A stretch of 63,564 nucleotides of DNA, filler included, from Stramenopiles sp. TOSAG23-3 (lineage: Eukaryota): the NCBI GenBank assembly GCA_900128585.1. It is 10 parts of 10 records of this genome, joined end to end, with 100 filler letters (N's around TTAATTAATTAA, not from the genome) between each part and the next. Parts side by side here need not be neighbours in the genome. Positions count along the whole stretch, not along the records: positions 48,637 to 55,461 come from LT643248.1; 9 more parts are not named here. The stretch is one strand, 5' to 3'. The stretch's first letter is position 1. Every line of letters begins with the position of its first letter. The notes beneath the pieces were generated by a model. It was not told where the DNA came from. It saw nothing but the letters and a program-made list of their open reading frames with translations, and did not search any database. Position numbers and translations under genes: made by a program. Below, piece after piece: positions 1,898-54,102 of this stretch.

Positions 1898-4800
1898 ATG
1901 AGGGAGAACAAAATCGTAACGTGTAGCACCCCAGAAGCACCCGCGAAGCGGAAAAAGCAACATGGCGCTTCAAGCTCAAAAAAACAGAAACTCGCGAAGT
2001 GCCCTGTTTGTCTCGAGCCGCCCGAAAAGGCGCTTATGTGCGAAAAGGGGTTCGTGGCATGTGACCAGTGCTGGCAGCGGAAAATTTGCTTTGATATCCA
2101 GCGAGGTCGAGCACCGCAGTGCATGTGCAAACGGTGCGGCGACTTGCCAAAATTTGAGCCTCGGTTCAACTCGTTGGTGAATAATTTGTGCACTTTATGT
2201 TACAAACCCCAAAAGTACCGGCGATGCACCCCAACGGTTAAGATTGGGTGCGCGCTCGACCACTCGTTTTGTTCCGAGTGTATTCGGGTGCATTTGTTGA
2301 CAGCGCTGAAACCAGATTCAAAGACAATGCCAAAGTGCCCGCGCTTCGCCGAGTGCAAGTTCACCCTACAGGAAGCAAGTATTCGCAGGCTGCTTGAGGA
2401 AACGAAAAACAACACGATCGATAACGCGGAACCGACAGAAATTTATTTACAAGAATGGTACGACTTACGAGTTCGAACGAGTCAAGTAAATCATCCACGG
2501 GGGTTTAAATGCACAGTTCCTGATTGTTCGGGATACGTATTGGGGAGCATTTGGGACTCGAGCACACGAAAGACACGGTGTTTAAATTGCGACCGTATGT
2601 ATTGTTCTGCTTGCAAGAACGAGTACCACCCGGGGCGAAAGTCATGCGTCGATGCGAAACATGCTAGCGCACAGTGGAACGGGTTTCTTAAAGCAACAGC
2701 AGACCCAGGTACGAAAACTGGCGCTGGTGTTGCTGAGACGGCCAAGGCGGCCCTGCTTCGAATTCAGCAGGATGGCCAGACAGATGAATGGTTCCGCAAA
2801 GAATTCGCGTCCCAATCGGACGACCATGGGATAAAGTTCTGCCCAAACCCAAAGTGCAAAAAGATCATCTACAAGGTCGACCGGTGCACTTCTATGATAT
2901 GCGGGAAAAACAATGATGATGATGAAGACAATCAAGACGGCTGCCGCCAGAAATTTGACTGGCGAAAGGCTCCTCACGCAACAAAGGAAGAAATTGATGC
3001 GTACCTGTCGAAGCGCGGAAAGAAAACGTTCGCGCAGGTGGAGCTTACGAGCGATGGCGTTCACTACAGTACTGCTATTTTTCACAGCAAGGACTTAAAA
3101 TGGGAAACGCGGGCTTGCACTGAGTGTTCGGAGGTTATTAAAGGCACTCGATTTGATTGTATTAATTGCGGCGGAGACAGCGGAAGACCCAGTGCGACGC
3201 TATGCTTGAAATGCGTTACAAACCACGTAGACCACCGCTGGGGGAAAACGAAGCATTCGGGTCACAAATTTGCTGTTGTCAACCCTCTGACGACCGCGCC
3301 TGTTCCTGCCCTGCGATATGTACAAGCAAGGCTGAACCAAGAATCAGGGATATTGTCTGTGCGTGATCTCAGCAGGGCAGTTGACCTCGTGGAATTGCTT
3401 GATACTGCCAGCGACAAAAATCTCGAGGATGGATCCCTGGTAACGGTGCGGGTTGACCTGCATCCAGATGGCAATCTGGTGTTCGCTGACAATGCTCGTC
3501 GGGCCATTGGAGATTTATGTTTGGACTCCATCGCATTTGATTTAAATGACAACAAAACATGTGGTGGTGACAAACAACCTTTAAAATTACTGGACTCGGC
3601 GCCATTTTATTGCGAGACAGATGAACCTCAAAAAGTGAACGTAGAGGCCGCACATCTTTCTGAGTCTATTGTATTCCACCCAGGCGCGCACTACCGTTTT
3701 AACTTTTCTGTCCACAATGTTGAAGGTCTAAGTAAATACATGACGCTCTCGGAAGACAGTAAGAGCATCGAATTGCCACTGAAGAGTAAAGTTCCACTTA
3801 CGGATGATCTTGCCAAGTTGGTTGCCAAGGAAGCACTCACGGAGGAGCAAGCCCACGCAATGATGCCGCCCCAGAAGGTAAAAGGGGAGGAGTCAAAAGG
3901 GACTACCGAGTCTTCAGGGGAGGAGTGTGCCACAAACGCCTCAGTCTGGGAAGTAGTCAATGTGACGTTGGAATCGGTGACCAGCAAAGTATTTATGCTT
4001 CGGAATGTCCTTCACCCAGAATTGTTCTTGCGCTCGAGCGATAGACTCGATAACCAAAGCAAAAATGCGCTTGTGGGTGTCGCAGAATATAATGATGCTG
4101 AGGCTAGTCGATTTCACTTTACTGCTACCGTAAACGGCGATCCCGATTTTCGCCAATGTAACCAATTCATCCCGTGCAATCCTGCCTCCATCCAAGCAGG
4201 CAATCAATATGTTTTCCATCCTAAGGGAGAGAGGACAGATTATCGTAAGGGTTTGCCCCATGACCAAATAGTTACCGTTATTGAGCAGAATACTGGAACA
4301 CCGCCGATACACGTTGAATGGAAGGATGGCACAACGTACTGGGTTCATAAGGAAGACTTGTGCGTAAAGATAACACAAAAAACCGAATTACCAAGTACGG
4401 GATATCAAATATTTCTGTATTCGGTTTTTGGTGGACAAAAAAGTCCCATTTATAGTGACGAAATGGGGAGGGTTGCAATTAATTGCTCGTTAAAGCGTTG
4501 GTATTGGTTTGGTTGCTCTCAAACATGCACTAAATCACATCGCAGCAAAACAACTTGCGTAGTGTGCAATCGTCCTTGGGACAAGCACAGTGGTCATAAG
4601 TGCAACGACGGCACTGACAGACGTGGCATCTTTGCTTCCGGTAAAATACAAATGAAGACCCCAATATATGTAGAAACTGTTCGGGAAGCAAACGAGTCCT
4701 CCCCAAAGGCGTTCCTGTCGGGCATTGACGACATAGCCCTCGCAAAAGTGCACTGCACACCTGCCGAAGACTCAGTGCACCTGATGCCTGTTTTATGGGA

Positions 4801-10784: not shown

Positions 10785-12222
10785 GGAAAGCGTTGCCGAA
10801 AGTTTGTCCGGTGCCGTATTGTTGTGTTGCAGTATAAAATGAGCAAGGATCAGGAAAACTTTTATTTTTGTAATGCGTCTTTAGCAATAAATGTGGGGGA
10901 ACGATCGTGTTTAGAGACTATTTATGAAATGAAGATGGTGAGAAAATGAGTTCGTGTGTAACATGTGGCGGGGTACCTCTTGGTTCTTTTGTGTAAAACG
11001 ACTAGTAGTATAATGAACAGATATTATAATAATAATAATAATAATAAAATAAATATTATAAATGTACATCATTATATAACTAATAACTATACTACTATTA
11101 TATATATCATATAATAATTTGGATGATTTATATTCGTTCCACACCACACAACCAATAATTAGAATAATCAAACTCCTCTGCTGTGTTCGATGAAGACGAA
11201 TTTTTTTAAAAAGAAGAAGAGTTTTTTAACATATTCTCAAAAAAACTGGTTGTTTCGTATACACGTAGTCTTCTTAGAGGTACGTAGGTCACTCACAGTT
11301 GGAAAAGTTGTTATAGTATACACTAATAGGTAATATATATATATAAGTACGGATTATTGATGATAGTTCGAACCAAATTTTAGTTGTCACTCAAGTAACT
11401 AACTATAATACCAACTTGGTATGAGGAAGAACTCGTCCGATCCTCGTAATTCAGGTGTGATGGTGTGATTGACGGCCAAATATTTTGTTGATAGCTTCGT
11501 GGCAAAAGAGGAAACAAGTACGAATTGACTGTATACTTTAAATAAACTATGGCCACAGTTGCTGGGACACCTCGGCGGCCAAATTCACCACTTTTAAAAC
11601 TTCACACACTCAGCACTCAGCCTTGCAGCTATGCTACGGTACCGTATTATTATATCCTGTTTCCTTCACAACCTGCAAATAGACTAATAAATCTGTAAAT
11701 ACATCTCATGTGAGAGGAGGAAGCTTTCTTTTTGCATTTCCTTTTTTTTTCTTCACAATTGCTTTATTTATTAAATACAAGGAGGCAAGGAGGGGGGGTA
11801 CACCACCATCAGGAATTTTGAAGTCAAAAAAAAAACGAAAGACATTTTTTTTTTAGCAAGAGGGAGGGAGGGGAAGAAATACAAATACCTGGTATTATAC
11901 TATTATTATATAGCTATACAGAGGAATACTGTAGTATTCAATAGTATATATATATAGTCGTCTAATAATGTAATAATACTCGAAAACCAGGTGGTACAGT
12001 GTACACTACTAACTACATACAGTCGTCAGGTAAATACGATTACTAATCATCGACATCAAAAGAGAAATAAAGCCCAATTCGCTCTGCTATCGAACTAACT
12101 GCTTGCATTTACCGCAGTTATATTGTTTAACACAAGTTCAGATCCACATTATTCGCTCGCAGCCGGGTCATTGTGTTGCGTCCACGCGCATTTTAATTGC
12201 CCTGTTGCTTCTTGTGCTACAG

Positions 12223-13338
12223 ATGTTGTTCTTCCAGAAAACCACCGTGTTTCAGCTATTGAGCTTGGCACTTGCTGTGGCTCTCTGCTCTGCCGATCCT
12301 GCTTTGGGGAGTCGCACTGTCTCACAAGGCAAGTCAGAAGTAGTGGTATCTGAGCAACTGCTCGAATTTCTGGGGCCTAGCCAGTTTGACTTGTCTGCTT
12401 GCCCAGTCGGTACAAAGCAAGTCTCGAACAAAGCAGGGAATAGAACTTGCCTAACTTGTAAAGCTGGCTTTTATTCAGCAACTTCGGGTTCCTCTAATTG
12501 TGTCAAATACAGGGACTGTCCGGCGGGTAAATATACTTCCTTGCAGGGTACCTTATCACGAGATCGTGTGTGCTTGACTTGTGCAGCTGGAACATATAGC
12601 CTTGTGAAAAACAGCGATCGGTGCCTGCCACTTATATGCCAGCCTGGTAACTTTTTTTCGGACACTAGCGCCCAATGCGAAAAGTGTCCGCAAGGACAAT
12701 ATTCGGCCACGCAGCACCCCAAAGGCTGCAAAAAATGGAGTGTTTGCGCAGCTGGAATGGTGGAGCACTTGCCTGGATCTTCCATATCGGACCGGGTGTG
12801 CACTTTAGAGGTACCCGTTCAGATGTTGTGCCCTGCCGGTTTTGTGTTTCGACCACCGTCTTGCGCCCCGTGCCCCAGTGGACATTACTCCACCAGCAAA
12901 TCACTCAGTTGTAGACAGTATACCGAATGCGAGCTAAATGAATACATTGCAGTACGAGGCACCAACTCCTCGGATCGTGTATGCCAACAGTGCAAAACAA
13001 ATGGGCACGTATCACCTGGCCACGACAGTTTTGGAGAGGCATCGTGTACTCTATCAAGCGTTTTGCGACTTAAACCCACCATTAAATTAGAGTATTTAGC
13101 AGTTTTATTGCTGTCTGCTCTTGTCTGGCGATGGACTACGGCATTGAATCGCCGCCCCCCTTATAAAAAGAGCAGGGCGCTCATCGCTTATGAAAAGGCA
13201 GCTGGGTTATCCGAGGGGGAGGTTCAAAAGGGCAAAAAGGGTGATCACGCTAGCAAAACAAAGAAAGTCCAAAAGGGCAAAAAACAACCTTCAGGAGAGC
13301 AAGATGATAGTGATGAGAGGCGTTTAATTTCATTGTAA
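12223..13338 (+). CDS. Type-I membrane protein with TNFR-like/GCC2_GCC3 cysteine-rich repeats
   Basis: Signal peptide MLFFQKTTVFQLLSLALAVALCSA. Three CxxxxxC..GT/SxxxDRVC units plus CxxCxxGxYS units. Hydrophobic segment YLAVLLLSALVW, then a Lys-rich tail. Confidence 0.82.
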   Translation: MLFFQKTTVFQLLSLALAVALCSADPALGSRTVSQGKSEVVVSEQLLEFLGPSQFDLSACPVGTKQVSNKAGNRTCLTCKAGFYSATSGSSNCVKYRDCPAGKYTSLQGTLSRDRVCLTCAAGTYSLVKNSDRCLPLICQPGNFFSDTSAQCEKCPQGQYSATQHPKGCKKWSVCAAGMVEHLPGSSISDRVCTLEVPVQMLCPAGFVFRPPSCAPCPSGHYSTSKSLSCRQYTECELNEYIAVRGTNSSDRVCQQCKTNGHVSPGHDSFGEASCTLSSVLRLKPTIKLEYLAVLLLSALVWRWTTALNRRPPYKKSRALIAYEKAAGLSEGEVQKGKKGDHASKTKKVQKGKKQPSGEQDDSDERRLISL

Positions 13339-44955: not shown

Positions 44956-45250
44956 GTGCGCGCGTGCTCAAATGATGACGTGCTGATTGCTATGTTTTTT
45001 TGCATTTTTATTAATAAAAAATAATAATAAATATATAATACTTCGTAGTCCTTTGTATAAAAAAATGCTTTTTGTAAATAAACGTCGAAGCCAACTTCAT
45101 ATTATTATTATTTGAAAGAAATAATCTTTTCTAACGAAAATAGATCATTCTTCGTCAAGAAATATAGAGCCACCAATATAGAGCGTGACGCCCAAATACA
45201 ATCTCTATTTTACACAGTCAATACTGACAAAAGATCCACAAGTGAGAAAT

Positions 45251-46144
45251 ATGTGCAATGGTATTTTTGTTGGCGTTGTGGCTTTGATTTGCCTCCAACC
45301 TGGTTCTGCTGTTTGTTATACAGCTCCTGATGCCTCGGGTCACGTAAACGTATCTAACAGTTTGACGGAAATTGAATCAGGGGCATACTATGGATGTCGC
45401 GAACTTAAATCGATAACCATACCAAGTAGTGTGACATCGATACAATCTCAGGCATTTCGAGACAGCGGCCTTACCTCGTTAACCATACCGAACAGTGTGA
45501 CGTCGATAGGTCCATCGTTATGCTATGGCTGTGAGAACCTTACTTCGGTGACCATACCGAACAGTGTGGAAACTCTAGGAGAACGCGCATTTGACTCATG
45601 TACACTTCTAGAGAGCTTGACCATACCGAACAAAGTGACGTCGGTAGGAAAGAGGCTTTGTTCAGAGTGCAAAAGCCTGACGTCCTTAACCATATCGAAC
45701 AATGTCACGAGCATAGGATATCTTGCTTTCCAAGGAACGGGTTTAACGTCAGTAACCATACCAAACTGCGTGACGGAAATATCAAAACATGCATTCTGGA
45801 ATTCTCAAAACCTTGTTTCAGTGACCATTGGTACCGGCGTAAAAAGCATTGGGGACAGTGCATTCGGATCAAACAATAAGGAACGCAACAAGAATCTGAA
45901 ATGTTACAAGGTCTGTGAGCCAGGGCCAAACGCATGTCATAAAATGGTCAGCCTGGACGACGATGTCTCTGGAAGCGGAAAATCATGTTTCGGAGATTGT
46001 ACCATGGAGTCGCTAGATGCATTGAGCTGTCCCGGAGTCGATGGAGAGTGCGAGGAATGTCCGCTGAAAAGTGCCAGTGTGTTGTCCTCGCGGTCGATGA
46101 TCACCACCGTGCTTCTACTCGCCGTGCTCGTTTATCTTTTCTAG
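45251..46144 (+). CDS. BspA-like leucine-rich repeat (LRR_5) surface protein, likely GPI-anchored
   Basis: Signal peptide MCNGIFVGVVALICLQPGSA. Repeats LTSVTIPNSVTSIGxxAF. Cys-rich stalk. Hydrophobic C-terminus VLLLAVLVYLF. Confidence 0.92.
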   Translation: MCNGIFVGVVALICLQPGSAVCYTAPDASGHVNVSNSLTEIESGAYYGCRELKSITIPSSVTSIQSQAFRDSGLTSLTIPNSVTSIGPSLCYGCENLTSVTIPNSVETLGERAFDSCTLLESLTIPNKVTSVGKRLCSECKSLTSLTISNNVTSIGYLAFQGTGLTSVTIPNCVTEISKHAFWNSQNLVSVTIGTGVKSIGDSAFGSNNKERNKNLKCYKVCEPGPNACHKMVSLDDDVSGSGKSCFGDCTMESLDALSCPGVDGECEECPLKSASVLSSRSMITTVLLLAVLVYLF

Positions 46145-48536: not shown

Positions 48537-48918
48537 NNNNNNNNNNNNNNNNNNNNNNNNNNNNNNNNNNNNNNNNNNNNTTAATTAATTAANNNNNNNN
48601 NNNNNNNNNNNNNNNNNNNNNNNNNNNNNNNNNNNNCAAAACAAAAAAAACAAAAAAGACCAAAAAAAAATACTAAGAAAAAATATTATTAATAATAAAT
48701 ATTATCATCATCCGATGATAATGATGATTCCAAAACAAACAAAAAATCATCCAAACAAACAACCCAAACCCAAACAAACCAACAACTGTGGGAGATTTAA
48801 AAGAAAAAGTATACATCTAGTAATATACAAGCACGCAGAGATTTACGAAAGAAACACCTACCTGCGTTAATTTTTATTCACACACACATACACCAACACC
48901 AGGAGGAATAAAGAAAGT

Positions 48919-51900
48919 ATGGAAGAAGCAAACAATCCCCAGGAGAGAACGGTTTCTTTTGCCTCCCAATCCGACTCGGTTCGAACCGCGCAGAGCATCG
49001 AAAGCAAAACGCTCGAGAGTGCAACTTTGGCAAGGCGTCCGGTAAGCCGTCTCATCAATCCAAAGCCAGTGCTATCCAGCGTTTCCAAAACGGCGCGAGA
49101 TGTGTCCAAGCGCATCTCGTTGGTACAAAAGCAGGTAAGAAGCGGTGCGTCCAAGCATGTCACGTTGGCGCAAGAACAGGTCAGTGGAGCCCTGAAGGGC
49201 GTGCAGCAGGTGAGCGATGCGCTGAAAGGTGCAAAAGACCGTTTGTTCACTAAACAACAAAGAGACCACAAGTTCCTGTTGGCCCCTATGACCGCCGTTA
49301 CGTACCAAGAATACATTTGCTGCGGACGCTGTAAGAACGGTCCAGAGGTCCGACTCGACGATAAGATTGAGGATATCGTCAGGGCAGAAGCAACGACGCT
49401 TGGCGCAGTGGAACATCTTGTACCGACTGTGAAGAAGGGCAGGCCTTCAAAAATGGAACCGAACGTTTGCTTTTGCTGTCCTGGTCAGAAGACTGCCAAC
49501 CCTGGGTATGACTTTTTATTCAATCGTCAAAAGTTTAAGTCGCTTCTTATCATACAGTTGGCCATGTTCTTCATGACAATCCTGGTTTTGAATTACGAAC
49601 AATACATGATCAAAGCCCCATCTTGTCACCCGGTGGAAGTGGACAATTTTATGAGCTGGTTACGGCCCCGAGGCGAAACTTACAACGCGAACTATGTGAA
49701 TTCGAGCGTATCGCACAGCAGGGAGAAAATAGTCATCGTGCCTCGAAAACGGCCCTTTTGCGTTGATATGGTGAAGCCATTGGACGCCTTTGGATTTTGT
49801 AACATTATTGCTGAATATGAATGGTTTCTCGCGAATCCGTTCAATATTGGGGCCCCCCTTCAGAAAACTCCCGTTAACCCATTTTTAGGGTTAATTATAG
49901 TGTCCCTGCTTGGCTACCTCTTCGCTGCCATGTCTTTAGATGTTGGGAGAAAACTGTTTTACGATTATAATGCCAAAGAAAGGCGTTGTGTCAGGAAGTG
50001 TTTGTCGTTTTTCATTCGGCTATGGGTGGGCCTTGGTTGTGTCGTATACTTCTTATTTGTTCAAACTCAGCTGCACAACTCCCTGCGCGTCTGCGGCCAA
50101 GGGCTATTCAACACCAACTGTTTCTTGAGGAACGGCACGGTTGTGTACACAAAAGAACAGGCGAGTTCTTACTACCAAGATTTTAAGTACATTTACTGGG
50201 ACGAATATAAAAAGATAGAGGTAGGTTCACAAGAGTCTTCGAACATAACCCTCGCTATCACCACAGGCGTGGTGGGAAAATTTAAAGCGGCCTCGGGCCT
50301 TCTTGAAGAAAATTTTTCCAAATGCATGGAGTTTCAATACGACGGACACCTCGTTGTTGTGTACGGGATTTGGCTTGTGCTCACTGTATTGTTCTACATT
50401 TCAAACTTGTCTGCGCTGATTTCAATGATCGAATATCTAAAACCAGGGTTTATAATTGTTGCAAAGCGAAAAATGGGACAATTGAAGAATGCTGCTTTTA
50501 AAGACTGGAACGCGACTGCCAAAGCGAGAGGGCTCCTTTTCAAAATAGAGCGTAGCCTTCCAACAGCGTGCAAGAGCAAGGGCCCTTACCTTTGGAAGGG
50601 GTCGAATGCACCGGGCAAGAAGCGCGAGAAAGTTGGTTTTCAGTTTCCACCGATCGTTGGCGCGGCAGTGCTTTTGACGGTTGTAGGGTTGTTCGGAATA
50701 TTTGTTCAATATTGGGTGTGGCAGGTGGAGACGATTGAGGGGTTCTTGACGAGATGCGCAGTCCCATCCTTGGAGCGCGCTCACGACATTGCGAAGGACC
50801 CAAAGGTGACTAACTCGAGCCAGTTACTGCACCAAGTGCTGGGACCGTGTGCCCCATACATAGACTACGGCGATCTCGAGGCGAAGCTCTTCAGACAAAA
50901 AGGAGAATTTTTTAGTGAAGCGTCGGAATATCTAACGAACGGGTCAGCGATCGCAAAAGAAAATATGGAGGAGCTTCGGGCAAATGCAGTCAGTCGTGCG
51001 AATGCCGTAAGTCCCGATTTAGTGGCCCAAATACTCAATCTCGGGGCAGATGCAGGAGCTCAAGCCCAGGGGATTACAAAGGGCGTTCCAGGCATCATCA
51101 TACAGACTGTTCAATCGGGGTTTCAGAATTTTGCGAACAACAATTTTAATTTGGTAAAACAAATTTTGGGAAACAACGTGGTTGGAAAAGTAATTATAGG
51201 CCAGGTTGTCGCCCAGATTCTCCTTATTTGGTCTGCGTTTGGAAAAATAGTTCTCATTATATGCGCCATCCTTAGATTTCGGAGCATGCAGCGAATGCTG
51301 AACAAACTGTACGTAATTGGTGTGCGGCAGTGCGAAGTTGTTGAACGGTGCTTTGTGCACGAGGAAGGCGTGTATGTTTTCCCGATGAATCACAAGGATT
51401 TGGATGCCCTGAATGGTGAAGCACCAGAATCTAAAATAATTACCAACAATTGTGAGATTTTCGGGGCAAACATCCGAATGCCCCACCTTGAAGTTGAAGA
51501 GCTGTCCCAGGAGGAAAAGCGTAAAGCCCAGGAGAAGCGGCTGGAGTATCGTCATATTCACGACGTGAATTACTTTCTTCCGGGGTTTGTGATATCTCAA
51601 TTATTGGGCTCTATTATTCAATTCTATGTACTCTGGATAGGGCTCTCACTTTTGTACTTTGCAGTGGTCTTAAACGTTGCCCAAATGATAGTAATGAAGC
51701 CTGAGGGTGGAGTCCGATCTTTTGACACCGAGGAAGATATCTTAGAGGGGCTTGAAGTGATGAGCAATAAGTTATTCGTGGTGCTTCTGAGCGTGTGCAT
51801 TCCATTTTTTCTGAAAGGCGTCATTTTGAAACAGTTCGGAAAATATTGGTCGGATCGCAAAAGTGGGATAAAAGCCCCCAAGCGATTCATTTTGATCAAT

Positions 51901-52356
51901 TTCCTTCAAATGGTAAGTTTCTGTTCTATCTCTACGGTTAAGTGTTCTCCGAAGCCTTTTTTGGTACTAACTTGTTTTTGTCTTTCTCTCACTGCTTAGA
52001 TATATTTGATTCCTGTAACATTTTTTGTCATGGTTGCCCGCGTCACGGCGGTATCGGCCCGCTCTCTGTATTTGTTAGGCGATTTGGACAAACCGTTTGG
52101 AATTTTTGATACGTTGACGTATGGTTGGAGGAGTATTATCGAGGCCATGCGTATCCGGGCAGAATTCAGGAAGAGGGCCTACGAAAAAGCAAAGGAGATC
52201 CGGTGGAAGACCGTAAAATTTAAAGACGAGGGTATATTGCTGGCCGAAGGGAAAGACGACAAAAGTGCCGAAGATCGGGTAAAGAACTCCTGGATTATGA
52301 TGACACCGTCAGTGGCTCTCCAGTCTGGCAGTGAAGTAGACGGTGAAGTATTGTAA
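48919..52356 (+). CDS. Multi-pass membrane protein, STRA6 (RBP receptor)-like; exons 48919-51912 and 52000-52356 (1116 aa)
   Basis: A phase-0 intron joins the two track ORFs. Motifs GFQFPPIVGAAVL, PGFVISQLLGSIIQF and MVARV..LYLLGDLDK..DTLTYGWRSII resemble STRA6 in the same order. Confidence 0.65.
51913..51999 (+). other. 87-nt spliceosomal intron
   Basis: GTAAGT donor, TACTAAC branch point (51965-51971), pyrimidine tract and TAG acceptor. Splicing preserves the frame. Confidence 0.9.
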
Positions 52357-52905
52357 TAGACTAATTATCGTTGGCGGCGGGGGGAGGTGTGTTAGTTGTC
52401 TCTTTCTATTTCTCGTTTTTTTTGTAATGTATGCAGGCGTTCATCTATTGTTTCCTACTAAATAATAGTACTATTTTCATTCTCTTCAGTGAATGTGTAC
52501 TACATTACGATTTTTAATTACTGATAATAATAAAAACAATTTAAATTTTTTTTTCTGTTTTTTTGCTTCTTCTTCTTTTTTTTCTCCTCCTCCTCCTCTT
52601 TTCTTCTTCTTTTTTTCTTCTTCTTCTCTTCTTCTTCTTCTCTTCGCTTCTCCGCCTCCGCCTTCATTTACCAAGGTATTATTTTTTACGAATATATTAT
52701 TTGTACCACACATAATATAAGATCTTTAATTGTACATGAAGTCGTTTACGTATCTTTAAAGATTCAAATTTGTAGGGTAGTGAGCTGCACGTTTTCTTCT
52801 ATGTTTATGCTGTACCTGCAAGTCCGCCTATTTTTTGCATTTTGCAATCTACCTATTTTCTTTCTTTCTTTTAGTACACCGAATTTTCCAGGGGTTGTCT
52901 TCATA

Positions 52906-54102
52906 ATGAAAGTCCGAACGGTTACCGCGTTTGTCAGCTTAACGGGTGCTTTCGACGAAAGCTATGTTTCTGCGGCGCTGGAATTTTTAAAAGCCCACTC
53001 TGCTATTTTGGAAAACGAAGGGAATTTTGAAGTTCAGACCACTCGCTTGGTATTCAACGATCCTAGTGAGTGGTTACTAAATGTGAAAGTAGGGGAGCCG
53101 GTGTCCCTGAAAAACGATGTCTTGAATTCGCTCGGGGCCCTTCTCGACAAGCACGGTGTATCCTTTTGTTCCCTTGGACGCCTTCCCTCCAAATACGCAG
53201 ACGTAGCACCTGCCATGATCCTTGCCAACGAACGGTTCAACGTGTCTGTAAATGTGAAAAAGGCGGACGTCGAGGGGGCGCTTCGAGTCGCAGAGGCCTG
53301 CAAAAACATCGCTGAAAATACGGATGGAGGTTTGGGCAACTTTCGATTTTGTGCGTCCTCCAATTTTGATAACGATTCCTGCTGCCCGTTCTTCCCCGCG
53401 TCCTTTGCCCCTTCGGTTGCGCACAACGCCACCGAGCAGGCGGTGTCCTTTGCTATAGGGCTAGAGAACGGATCCGACTTTCAACAAGCTTGCAGCCAAG
53501 CTGCCACCCTCAAACATTTAGGAAGAGAGATTGCCGCCGTGTTTTCCCCCGCGCTGAACGAGATAGAACGGCTCTGCCTTCGGGCCGAAGCGGAAACGAA
53601 CGCATCCGCTTACAAAATTGTTTACGCTGGGATTGACACTTCCTTGAACCCTGCCCTTGGGAACGAAGGCAGCATAGCATATGGGTTCAACCGGCTGAAA
53701 GAAGTAAAAAAATTTGGGTCAGAGGGGGCAAGCTTGGCCGCAGTTGCAGAGGCGACGACGGCGTGCCAGGATGGGTTCAAAGGCATTCGACTGTGTGGGT
53801 ACTGCGGGTGTATGCTGCCGCTGTGTGAGGACGAAGGCCTGGCATTGTCGGATTTGAATGCCCGCGATTTGTTGTCCTTGTCGAGCACCTGTGGCGTTGG
53901 GGTAGACACGTTGCCGCTAGGGCTGAACGATTTGGATGTGGACAAACTCGCATTTTTGTACTTGGATGCTGCTGCCGTTGCTTTCCGCAAGCAGCGCCCT
54001 TTGAGCGTCCGTGTCTTTCCTGTCCCTGGGCTGTCGTCGGGCCAAGCGACAACGTTCGACAATCCGTACTTGACGAACTCGAAATGTCGGGGCCTGAATT
54101 GA
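52906..54102 (+). CDS. DUF711/UPF0210 family protein
   Basis: MKVRTVTAF; EVQTTRL; GNFRFCASSN..PFFPASF; GIDTSLNP; CGYCGCMLPLCEDEGLA; SSTCGVGVDTLPL; PLSVRVFPVPG; FDNPYLTN. Confidence 0.88.
   Translation: MKVRTVTAFVSLTGAFDESYVSAALEFLKAHSAILENEGNFEVQTTRLVFNDPSEWLLNVKVGEPVSLKNDVLNSLGALLDKHGVSFCSLGRLPSKYADVAPAMILANERFNVSVNVKKADVEGALRVAEACKNIAENTDGGLGNFRFCASSNFDNDSCCPFFPASFAPSVAHNATEQAVSFAIGLENGSDFQQACSQAATLKHLGREIAAVFSPALNEIERLCLRAEAETNASAYKIVYAGIDTSLNPALGNEGSIAYGFNRLKEVKKFGSEGASLAAVAEATTACQDGFKGIRLCGYCGCMLPLCEDEGLALSDLNARDLLSLSSTCGVGVDTLPLGLNDLDVDKLAFLYLDAAAVAFRKQRPLSVRVFPVPGLSSGQATTFDNPYLTNSKCRGLN

Follow-up and report, generated by a model that had tools for sequence, protein, structure and literature searches.

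A two-exon gene from an uncultured marine protist encodes a polytopic membrane protein that may be a distant relative of STRA6

The window, that is, the whole stretch of DNA analysed here (63,564 nucleotides, filler included, joined from ten parts of the Stramenopiles sp. TOSAG23-3 assembly GCA_900128585.1), is gene-dense, with few and short introns, and its genes are typical of eukaryotes (EML, Aladin, Slu7, an EF-hand mitochondrial carrier, TFIIB and RabGAP). At 48919–52356, on the plus strand of the part taken from LT643248.1, lies a two-exon gene whose spliced product has 1116 amino acids. The features of the gene and its product are as follows.

48919–51912, plus strand: exon 1, codons 1–998, from the ATG at 48919 to ...FLQM (open frame, translation)
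48919–49533, plus strand: N-terminal region, aa 1–205, predicted to be cytosolic; 33 K/R against 21 D/E, no NxS/T site
49534–50727, plus strand: hydrophobic segments 1–5 (aa 206–226, 320–342, 360–383, 476–507 and 578–603), from hydropathy and loop charges
50728–51180, plus strand: loop 5, aa 604–754 (151 aa), predicted helical, with two Cys and two NxS/T sites; its predicted position is extracellular or lumenal
51181–51912, plus strand: first part of the C-terminal core, comprising segment 6 (aa 755–786), a predicted cytosolic stretch (aa 787–886), segments 7 and 8 and the start of segment 9
51913–51999, plus strand: intron of 87 nt, with a GTAAGT donor, a TACTAAC branch box and a TTAG acceptor
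52000–52356, plus strand: exon 2, codons 999–1116 and the stop codon TAA (52354–52356), starting IYLIPVT... (translation)
52000–52101, plus strand: the rest of segment 9 (to aa 1024) and a conserved GDLDKPFG turn (aa 1025–1032), from translation, hydropathy and alignment
52126–52206, plus strand: conserved basic amphipathic helix, aa 1041–1067, with W, I, M and F at positions 1-5-8-14
52357–52432, plus strand: 3' untranslated region; RNA contigs end at 52376–52432 and cannot fix the end of the RNA exactly

Approximately 280 nt upstream of the start codon there is an assembly linker or gap, TTAATTAATTAA flanked by two runs of N (48538–48636), and the promoter and 5' untranslated region may therefore be incomplete. 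Just past the 3' end of the gene a long intergenic tract is pyrimidine-rich, (CTT/CCT)n, at 52540–52660. The next gene downstream (52534–54102, plus strand) encodes a DUF711 protein (PF05167, E 5e-52), a mostly prokaryotic family. Elsewhere in the window, a protein with TNFR_c6 and ephrin-receptor-like Cys-rich repeats (12034–13338, plus strand; E 2e-19 and 8e-8) and a BspA-type LRR protein (45182–46144, plus strand; E 1e-52) appear to be surface proteins of this organism.

The sequence-only reading had proposed that the receptor becomes visible only after splicing, and the junction can be placed exactly. Four RNA runs were aligned to 50900–52500. In the RNA contigs of three of them (X1, X5 and X7, from three different studies and including two oligo-dT libraries), position 51911/12 is joined to 51999/52000, so that 87 nt with GT..AG ends are skipped, with 35–159 nt on the shorter side of the junction; the fourth run, X2, had no contig spanning the splice site. 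RNA contigs also extend over exon 1 at 50900–51911. The branch box, at 51965–51971, lies 28 nt upstream of the acceptor, and the intron itself stays in frame and closes with TAG.

Relatives of the gene show the same junction. Exon 2 can be aligned with spliced or intron-free relatives, and in P0009, P0020 and P0025 the sequence ...LQM or ...LEM runs directly into ILLIPVT..., with no insert. The genomic contig L002 carries the junction inside one uninterrupted frame (3160–4155) and has its introns elsewhere, which indicates that the L002 lineage is without this intron. The gene-caller products P0003, P0004, P0007 and P0005/P0006, from closer relatives, all enter a GT-starting insert at exactly the same codon; in P0005/P0006, which share the MEEA.. 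start of the exon 1 product, read-through of the insert happens to remain in frame. We conclude that the two-exon gene and its splice are genuine and that the gene is expressed. The region 50900–52356 is partly present in 20 of the 24 public runs listed, which come from 13 studies and are all marine or aquatic. Twelve of these 20 positive runs are on record as RNA, and they include oligo-dT libraries (marine poly-A metatranscriptomes). The host of the gene is an uncultured marine protist.

Hydropathy analysis gives nine to ten hydrophobic segments for the spliced product. The N-terminal region contains clusters of Cys and a conserved PGYDFLFNRQ motif immediately before the first hydrophobic segment. 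Segments 1–5 are separated alternately by loops 1 and 3, which carry Cys and NxS/T sites and are predicted to lie outside, and by the basic loops 2 and 4. Loop 1 (aa 227–319, 93 aa) and loop 3 (aa 384–475, 92 aa) together hold six Cys and four NxS/T sites; with loop 5 included the figures are eight Cys and six of the eight NxS/T sites of the protein. Large extra loops of the kinds described from the sequence, rich in Cys and N-glycan sites (loops 1 and 3) or predicted to be helical (loop 5), are present.

The predicted cytosolic stretch at aa 787–886 is conserved and carries RMLNKLYVIG.. and YFLPGF. It is followed by segment 7 (aa 887–926), which at 40 residues is possibly two helices, by segment 8 (aa 950–972) and by segment 9 (aa 990–1024), which has 35 residues and a central proline and whose first nine residues are encoded by exon 1. 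The W-I-M-F pattern of the basic helix beyond it is kept in all six sequences examined, and its 1-5-8-14 spacing resembles a classical calmodulin-target pattern.

The charges of the loops alternate, with 6 K/R against 2 D/E in loop 2, 17 against 3 in loop 4 and 6 against 1 in loop 9, and the C-terminal tail is basic and, by hydropathy, probably inside. From hydropathy and charge we infer that the N-terminus and the basic loops are cytosolic and that the three large loops are outer or lumenal. STRA6 has its N-terminus outside and its C-terminus inside and crosses the membrane nine times; since the charge bias places the 205-residue N-terminus of the protist protein inside, one extra segment is implied relative to that topology. 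The product is a polytopic membrane glycoprotein, with predicted glycan sites.

The protein belongs to a small family. Among 1.84 billion cluster representatives searched by phmmer with the exon 1 product, 23 matched at E ≤ 0.001, 16 at 1e-10 and 9 at 1e-30, and most of the 23 matched cluster proteins are fragments. Word-index searches returned four, six and eight proteins, every one a member of this family and lacking a precomputed Pfam domain, and there is no Pfam family for the group. In a metagenome scan with alignment A5, 259 pattern matches came down to two loci, L001 and L002. Between the window protein and L002, identity is 27% over aa 320–786 (138/509) and 47% over aa 787–998 (105/223), from which it can be seen that the C-terminal third is the conserved core. 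Between the window protein and P0003 there is no difference in TM5–TM9.

P0003 is 95% identical to the window protein, and 31 of the 54 amino acid differences between them fall at 49657–50046 (aa 247–376, covering loop 1 and segments 2 and 3), with 35% of the residues of segment 2 and 42% of those of segment 3 differing; this patch looks like a hypervariable or recombined cassette within a near-identical gene. Comparison with near-identical RNA contigs gave 19 single-base differences at 51008–52262, of which 17, each considered on its own, replace an amino acid and two are silent. These sites give no sign of purifying selection; the numbers are too small for a claim of positive selection, the binomial probability being about 0.1 against a 3:1 expectation. 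The N-terminal head of L002 (586–790) has about five tandem 11-residue repeats, KTAKGEMVKT-like, which recall amphipathic repeats that bind lipid surfaces; its period-11 score of 2.02 was reached by none of 2000 shuffles. The period was absent from the window protein and from P0006, whose scores were matched by 1948 and 1998 of 2000 shuffles, respectively, and the 11-residue repeat was therefore dropped as a feature of the family.

The sequence-only reading had also called the protein a STRA6-like receptor, from an apparent resemblance of short motifs, and this part of it stands only in part: protein-language-model neighbourhood and architecture speak for it, and Pfam, profile and Foldseek searches all came back without STRA6. 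The RBP_receptor family (PF14752) was matched at E ≤ 10 by none of 25 sequences of the protist family (both window exon products, 20 relatives and three L002 exon translations), a result in which the HMMER filters may hide matches above E ~0.1. The two window pieces had no Pfam match at all at E ≤ 10, and seven relatives and 16 further sequences gave scattered sub-threshold noise, never PF14752. With no such match, we refrain from assigning the protein to PF14752. Profiles of the protist family with 324, 1057 and 342 positions matched no PDB chain at E ≤ 10 in a set that contained the zebrafish STRA6 structure 5SY1. Searches of the PDB by phmmer with P0001, P0020 and P0009 likewise returned no STRA6 chain at E ≤ 10, and only chance matches (rhinovirus VP3, PBP1a, the TLR1 TIR domain and RamR; E 0.25–1).

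Structure prediction gave models too poor to decide the fold. AlphaFold2 reached pLDDT 55.4 and pTM 0.41 for P0006 (1094 aa, with the intron read through; alignment A1), and pLDDT 56.6 and pTM 0.38 for the spliced C-terminal protein P0009 (435 aa; alignment A4). With these models Foldseek found no match at E ≤ 0.001 and no STRA6 among the matches listed; VIA gave no STRA6 among the 50 matches listed for the P0009 model, nor among Foldseek's 306 chains. The longest structural alignment was to STRA6, but it is weak and within the noise. A homodimer prediction for the 331-residue product of L002 exon 3 scored 0.00, with the fold of the single chain itself uncertain, and this speaks neither for nor against a dimer.

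A different picture came from a feature search of the ESM Atlas. With residues 130–415 of P0009, which cover segments 6–9, the search returned only three clusters, and all three are PF14752 clusters. The first scored 0.86, with 189 of 256 features shared and PF14752 in 48% of its members; the second 0.85, with 177 shared and PF14752 in 92%; and the third 0.80, with 167 shared and PF14752 in 100%. Scores below 0.9 such as these are a lead only, and the scale carries no calibration for parts of proteins. The ten best family-bearing matches were PF14752 in ten of ten cases; by chance, one shuffled protein in three reaches 0.8, and one in three obtains ten matches to a single family. At least 170 shared features are seen in about nine of ten same-family matches, against one to two of ten chance or distant ones. 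The whole 998-residue exon 1 product gave no usable match. Since PF14752 had been named beforehand from the motif resemblance, it is unlikely that a random neighbour would land there; the two observations may nevertheless not be fully independent, as both are pattern recognition on the same sequence.

Taken together, these results leave the proposal that the protein is a distant, pre-animal and very divergent relative of the STRA6/STRA6L (RBP_receptor) family evenly balanced. The low prior that a motif resemblance deserves is raised by the Atlas neighbourhood, and slightly by the structural and architectural parallels, and is lowered by the failure of the HMM searches. The main competing explanation, to which we give somewhat less than an even chance, is that this is a lineage-restricted polytopic membrane protein without an evolutionary tie to STRA6, its resemblance arising from composition and the generic geometry of helix bundles; in that case work on its function, be it that of a channel, transporter, surface receptor or adhesion protein, would have to start from nothing. 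In favour of this, the family is confined to 23 clusters at E ≤ 0.001 out of 1.84 billion representatives, all of them free of Pfam domains, and neither HMMER, Pfam nor Foldseek links it to any known family, while the Atlas score lies under its own reliability mark and the structural match to STRA6 is within noise. Against this, a neighbour reached by chance would have had to belong to the previously named PF14752, out of 7.7 million clusters, and also to share 189 of the 256 features.

The protein could also be a composite, in which segments 1–4 and two capped outer loops form a four-helix membrane bundle of the tetraspanin, TTYH or connexin type, with an unrelated module attached on the C-terminal side. 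No family HMM match (PF00335 for the tetraspanins) and no CCG motif in the large outer loop were found in the protist protein, structural scores against PRPH2-ROM1 (7zw1), uroplakin (8jj5) and TTYH (7p5j and 9qnr) were at noise level, and, unlike the four- or five-helix proteins of the tetraspanin and TTYH type, the protist protein has five or six further segments. We regard the composite as very improbable.

If the protein is a relative of STRA6, a STRA6-like way of working is the most likely mechanism: a hydrophobic ligand would move through a cleft open to the membrane, at no cost in energy and under calmodulin-type control, with each step drawn by analogy. The conserved core, made up of segments 6–9 with the proline-containing last segment and the GDLDKPFG turn, would be the counterpart of the central domain of STRA6, where a lipophilic cleft is open to the membrane, and would form such a cleft itself. 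The basic W-I-M-F helix, 17 residues further on, would be a calmodulin-type regulatory site like CaMBP2. A small hydrophobic molecule, perhaps a sterol, some other lipid or a derivative of a carotenoid or retinoid, would pass between an extracellular binding site and either the membrane or an acceptor in the cytosol, without energy input, and the role of the RBP docking site would fall to the large outer loops of the protein itself.

Extended to the history of the family, this suggests that the fold of STRA6 predates animals, that the protist protein is a lipophilic-cleft conduit with its own Cys-rich and helical ectodomains and a calmodulin-type switch, exchanging a hydrophobic molecule (sterol, carotenoid or retinoid derivative, or lipid signal) with the outside without energy, and that the vertebrate retinol receptor is a late specialisation of an ancient lipid gate of eukaryotes. 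We offer this full scenario tentatively, as one that is possible and yet has the greater part of the probability against it. If it is true, the STRA6 fold would be older than both animals and RBP, its ancestral ligand would probably have been something other than retinol bound to RBP, and the protist relative would provide a second, very divergent sequence family from which the essential parts of the cleft and of the calmodulin switch could be worked out. Should the link be confirmed, the protein would be a strongly divergent, domain-expanded, pre-animal variant of STRA6; should it fail, there would still be an expressed, conserved and unannotated family of membrane proteins in marine plankton.

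STRA6 is the closest known system, and descriptions of it set its mode of transport apart from that of every other transporter class. The zebrafish protein is a stable dimer with nine transmembrane helices per protomer and, at the core of the dimer, a long intramembrane helix that lies horizontally, and binds calmodulin at three C-terminal regions, mainly CaMBP2 (residues 554–580) (PMC7154012). A lipophilic cleft that reaches into the membrane is described in another account (PMC8951293), and a juxtamembrane helix near residue 250, TM7 at approximately 366–376 and a juxtamembrane loop at 535–538 have been delineated (PMC5954442). As to distribution, STRA6 is treated as an invention of animals: it is called ‘animal-specific’ in one paper (PMC5977736), another records STRA6/STRA6L in vertebrates and amphioxus, with Stra6l in amphioxus (PMC3184775), and a third records it in sponges (PMC7743902). 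A limited search of the open-access literature found no report of a non-animal STRA6 homologue in a protist, diatom or phytoplankton.

The protist protein is unlike STRA6 in several respects. It is approximately 450 residues longer and is without a Pfam or HMMER match, it has an additional N-terminal hydrophobic segment following a 205-residue, probably cytosolic head, it carries three outer loops of 90–150 residues, and its host is a protist with no known RBP partner. In other respects the two are alike. The STRA6/STRA6L/RBPR2 proteins (PF14752; 5SY1 being the zebrafish STRA6–calmodulin structure) are likewise large and polytopic, with approximately nine hydrophobic segments, and PF14752 clusters are the nearest neighbour of the protist protein in protein-language-model feature space. 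Both have a conserved C-terminal membrane core that ends in a long hydrophobic stretch (35 residues with a central proline in the protist protein), and in both a basic amphipathic helix follows the last segment, a Trp-containing one in the protist protein at the place where STRA6 has its main calmodulin-binding helix, calmodulin binding here being putative. Read as architecture rather than as an alignment, the protist protein can be fitted to the STRA6 plan if its first segment is taken as the extra one. The stretch of approximately 100 residues after segment 6 (aa 787–886) would then replace the juxtamembrane region of STRA6, the long, proline-containing last segment would correspond to TM9, to the intramembrane helix or to both, and the W-I-M-F helix would correspond to CaMBP2.
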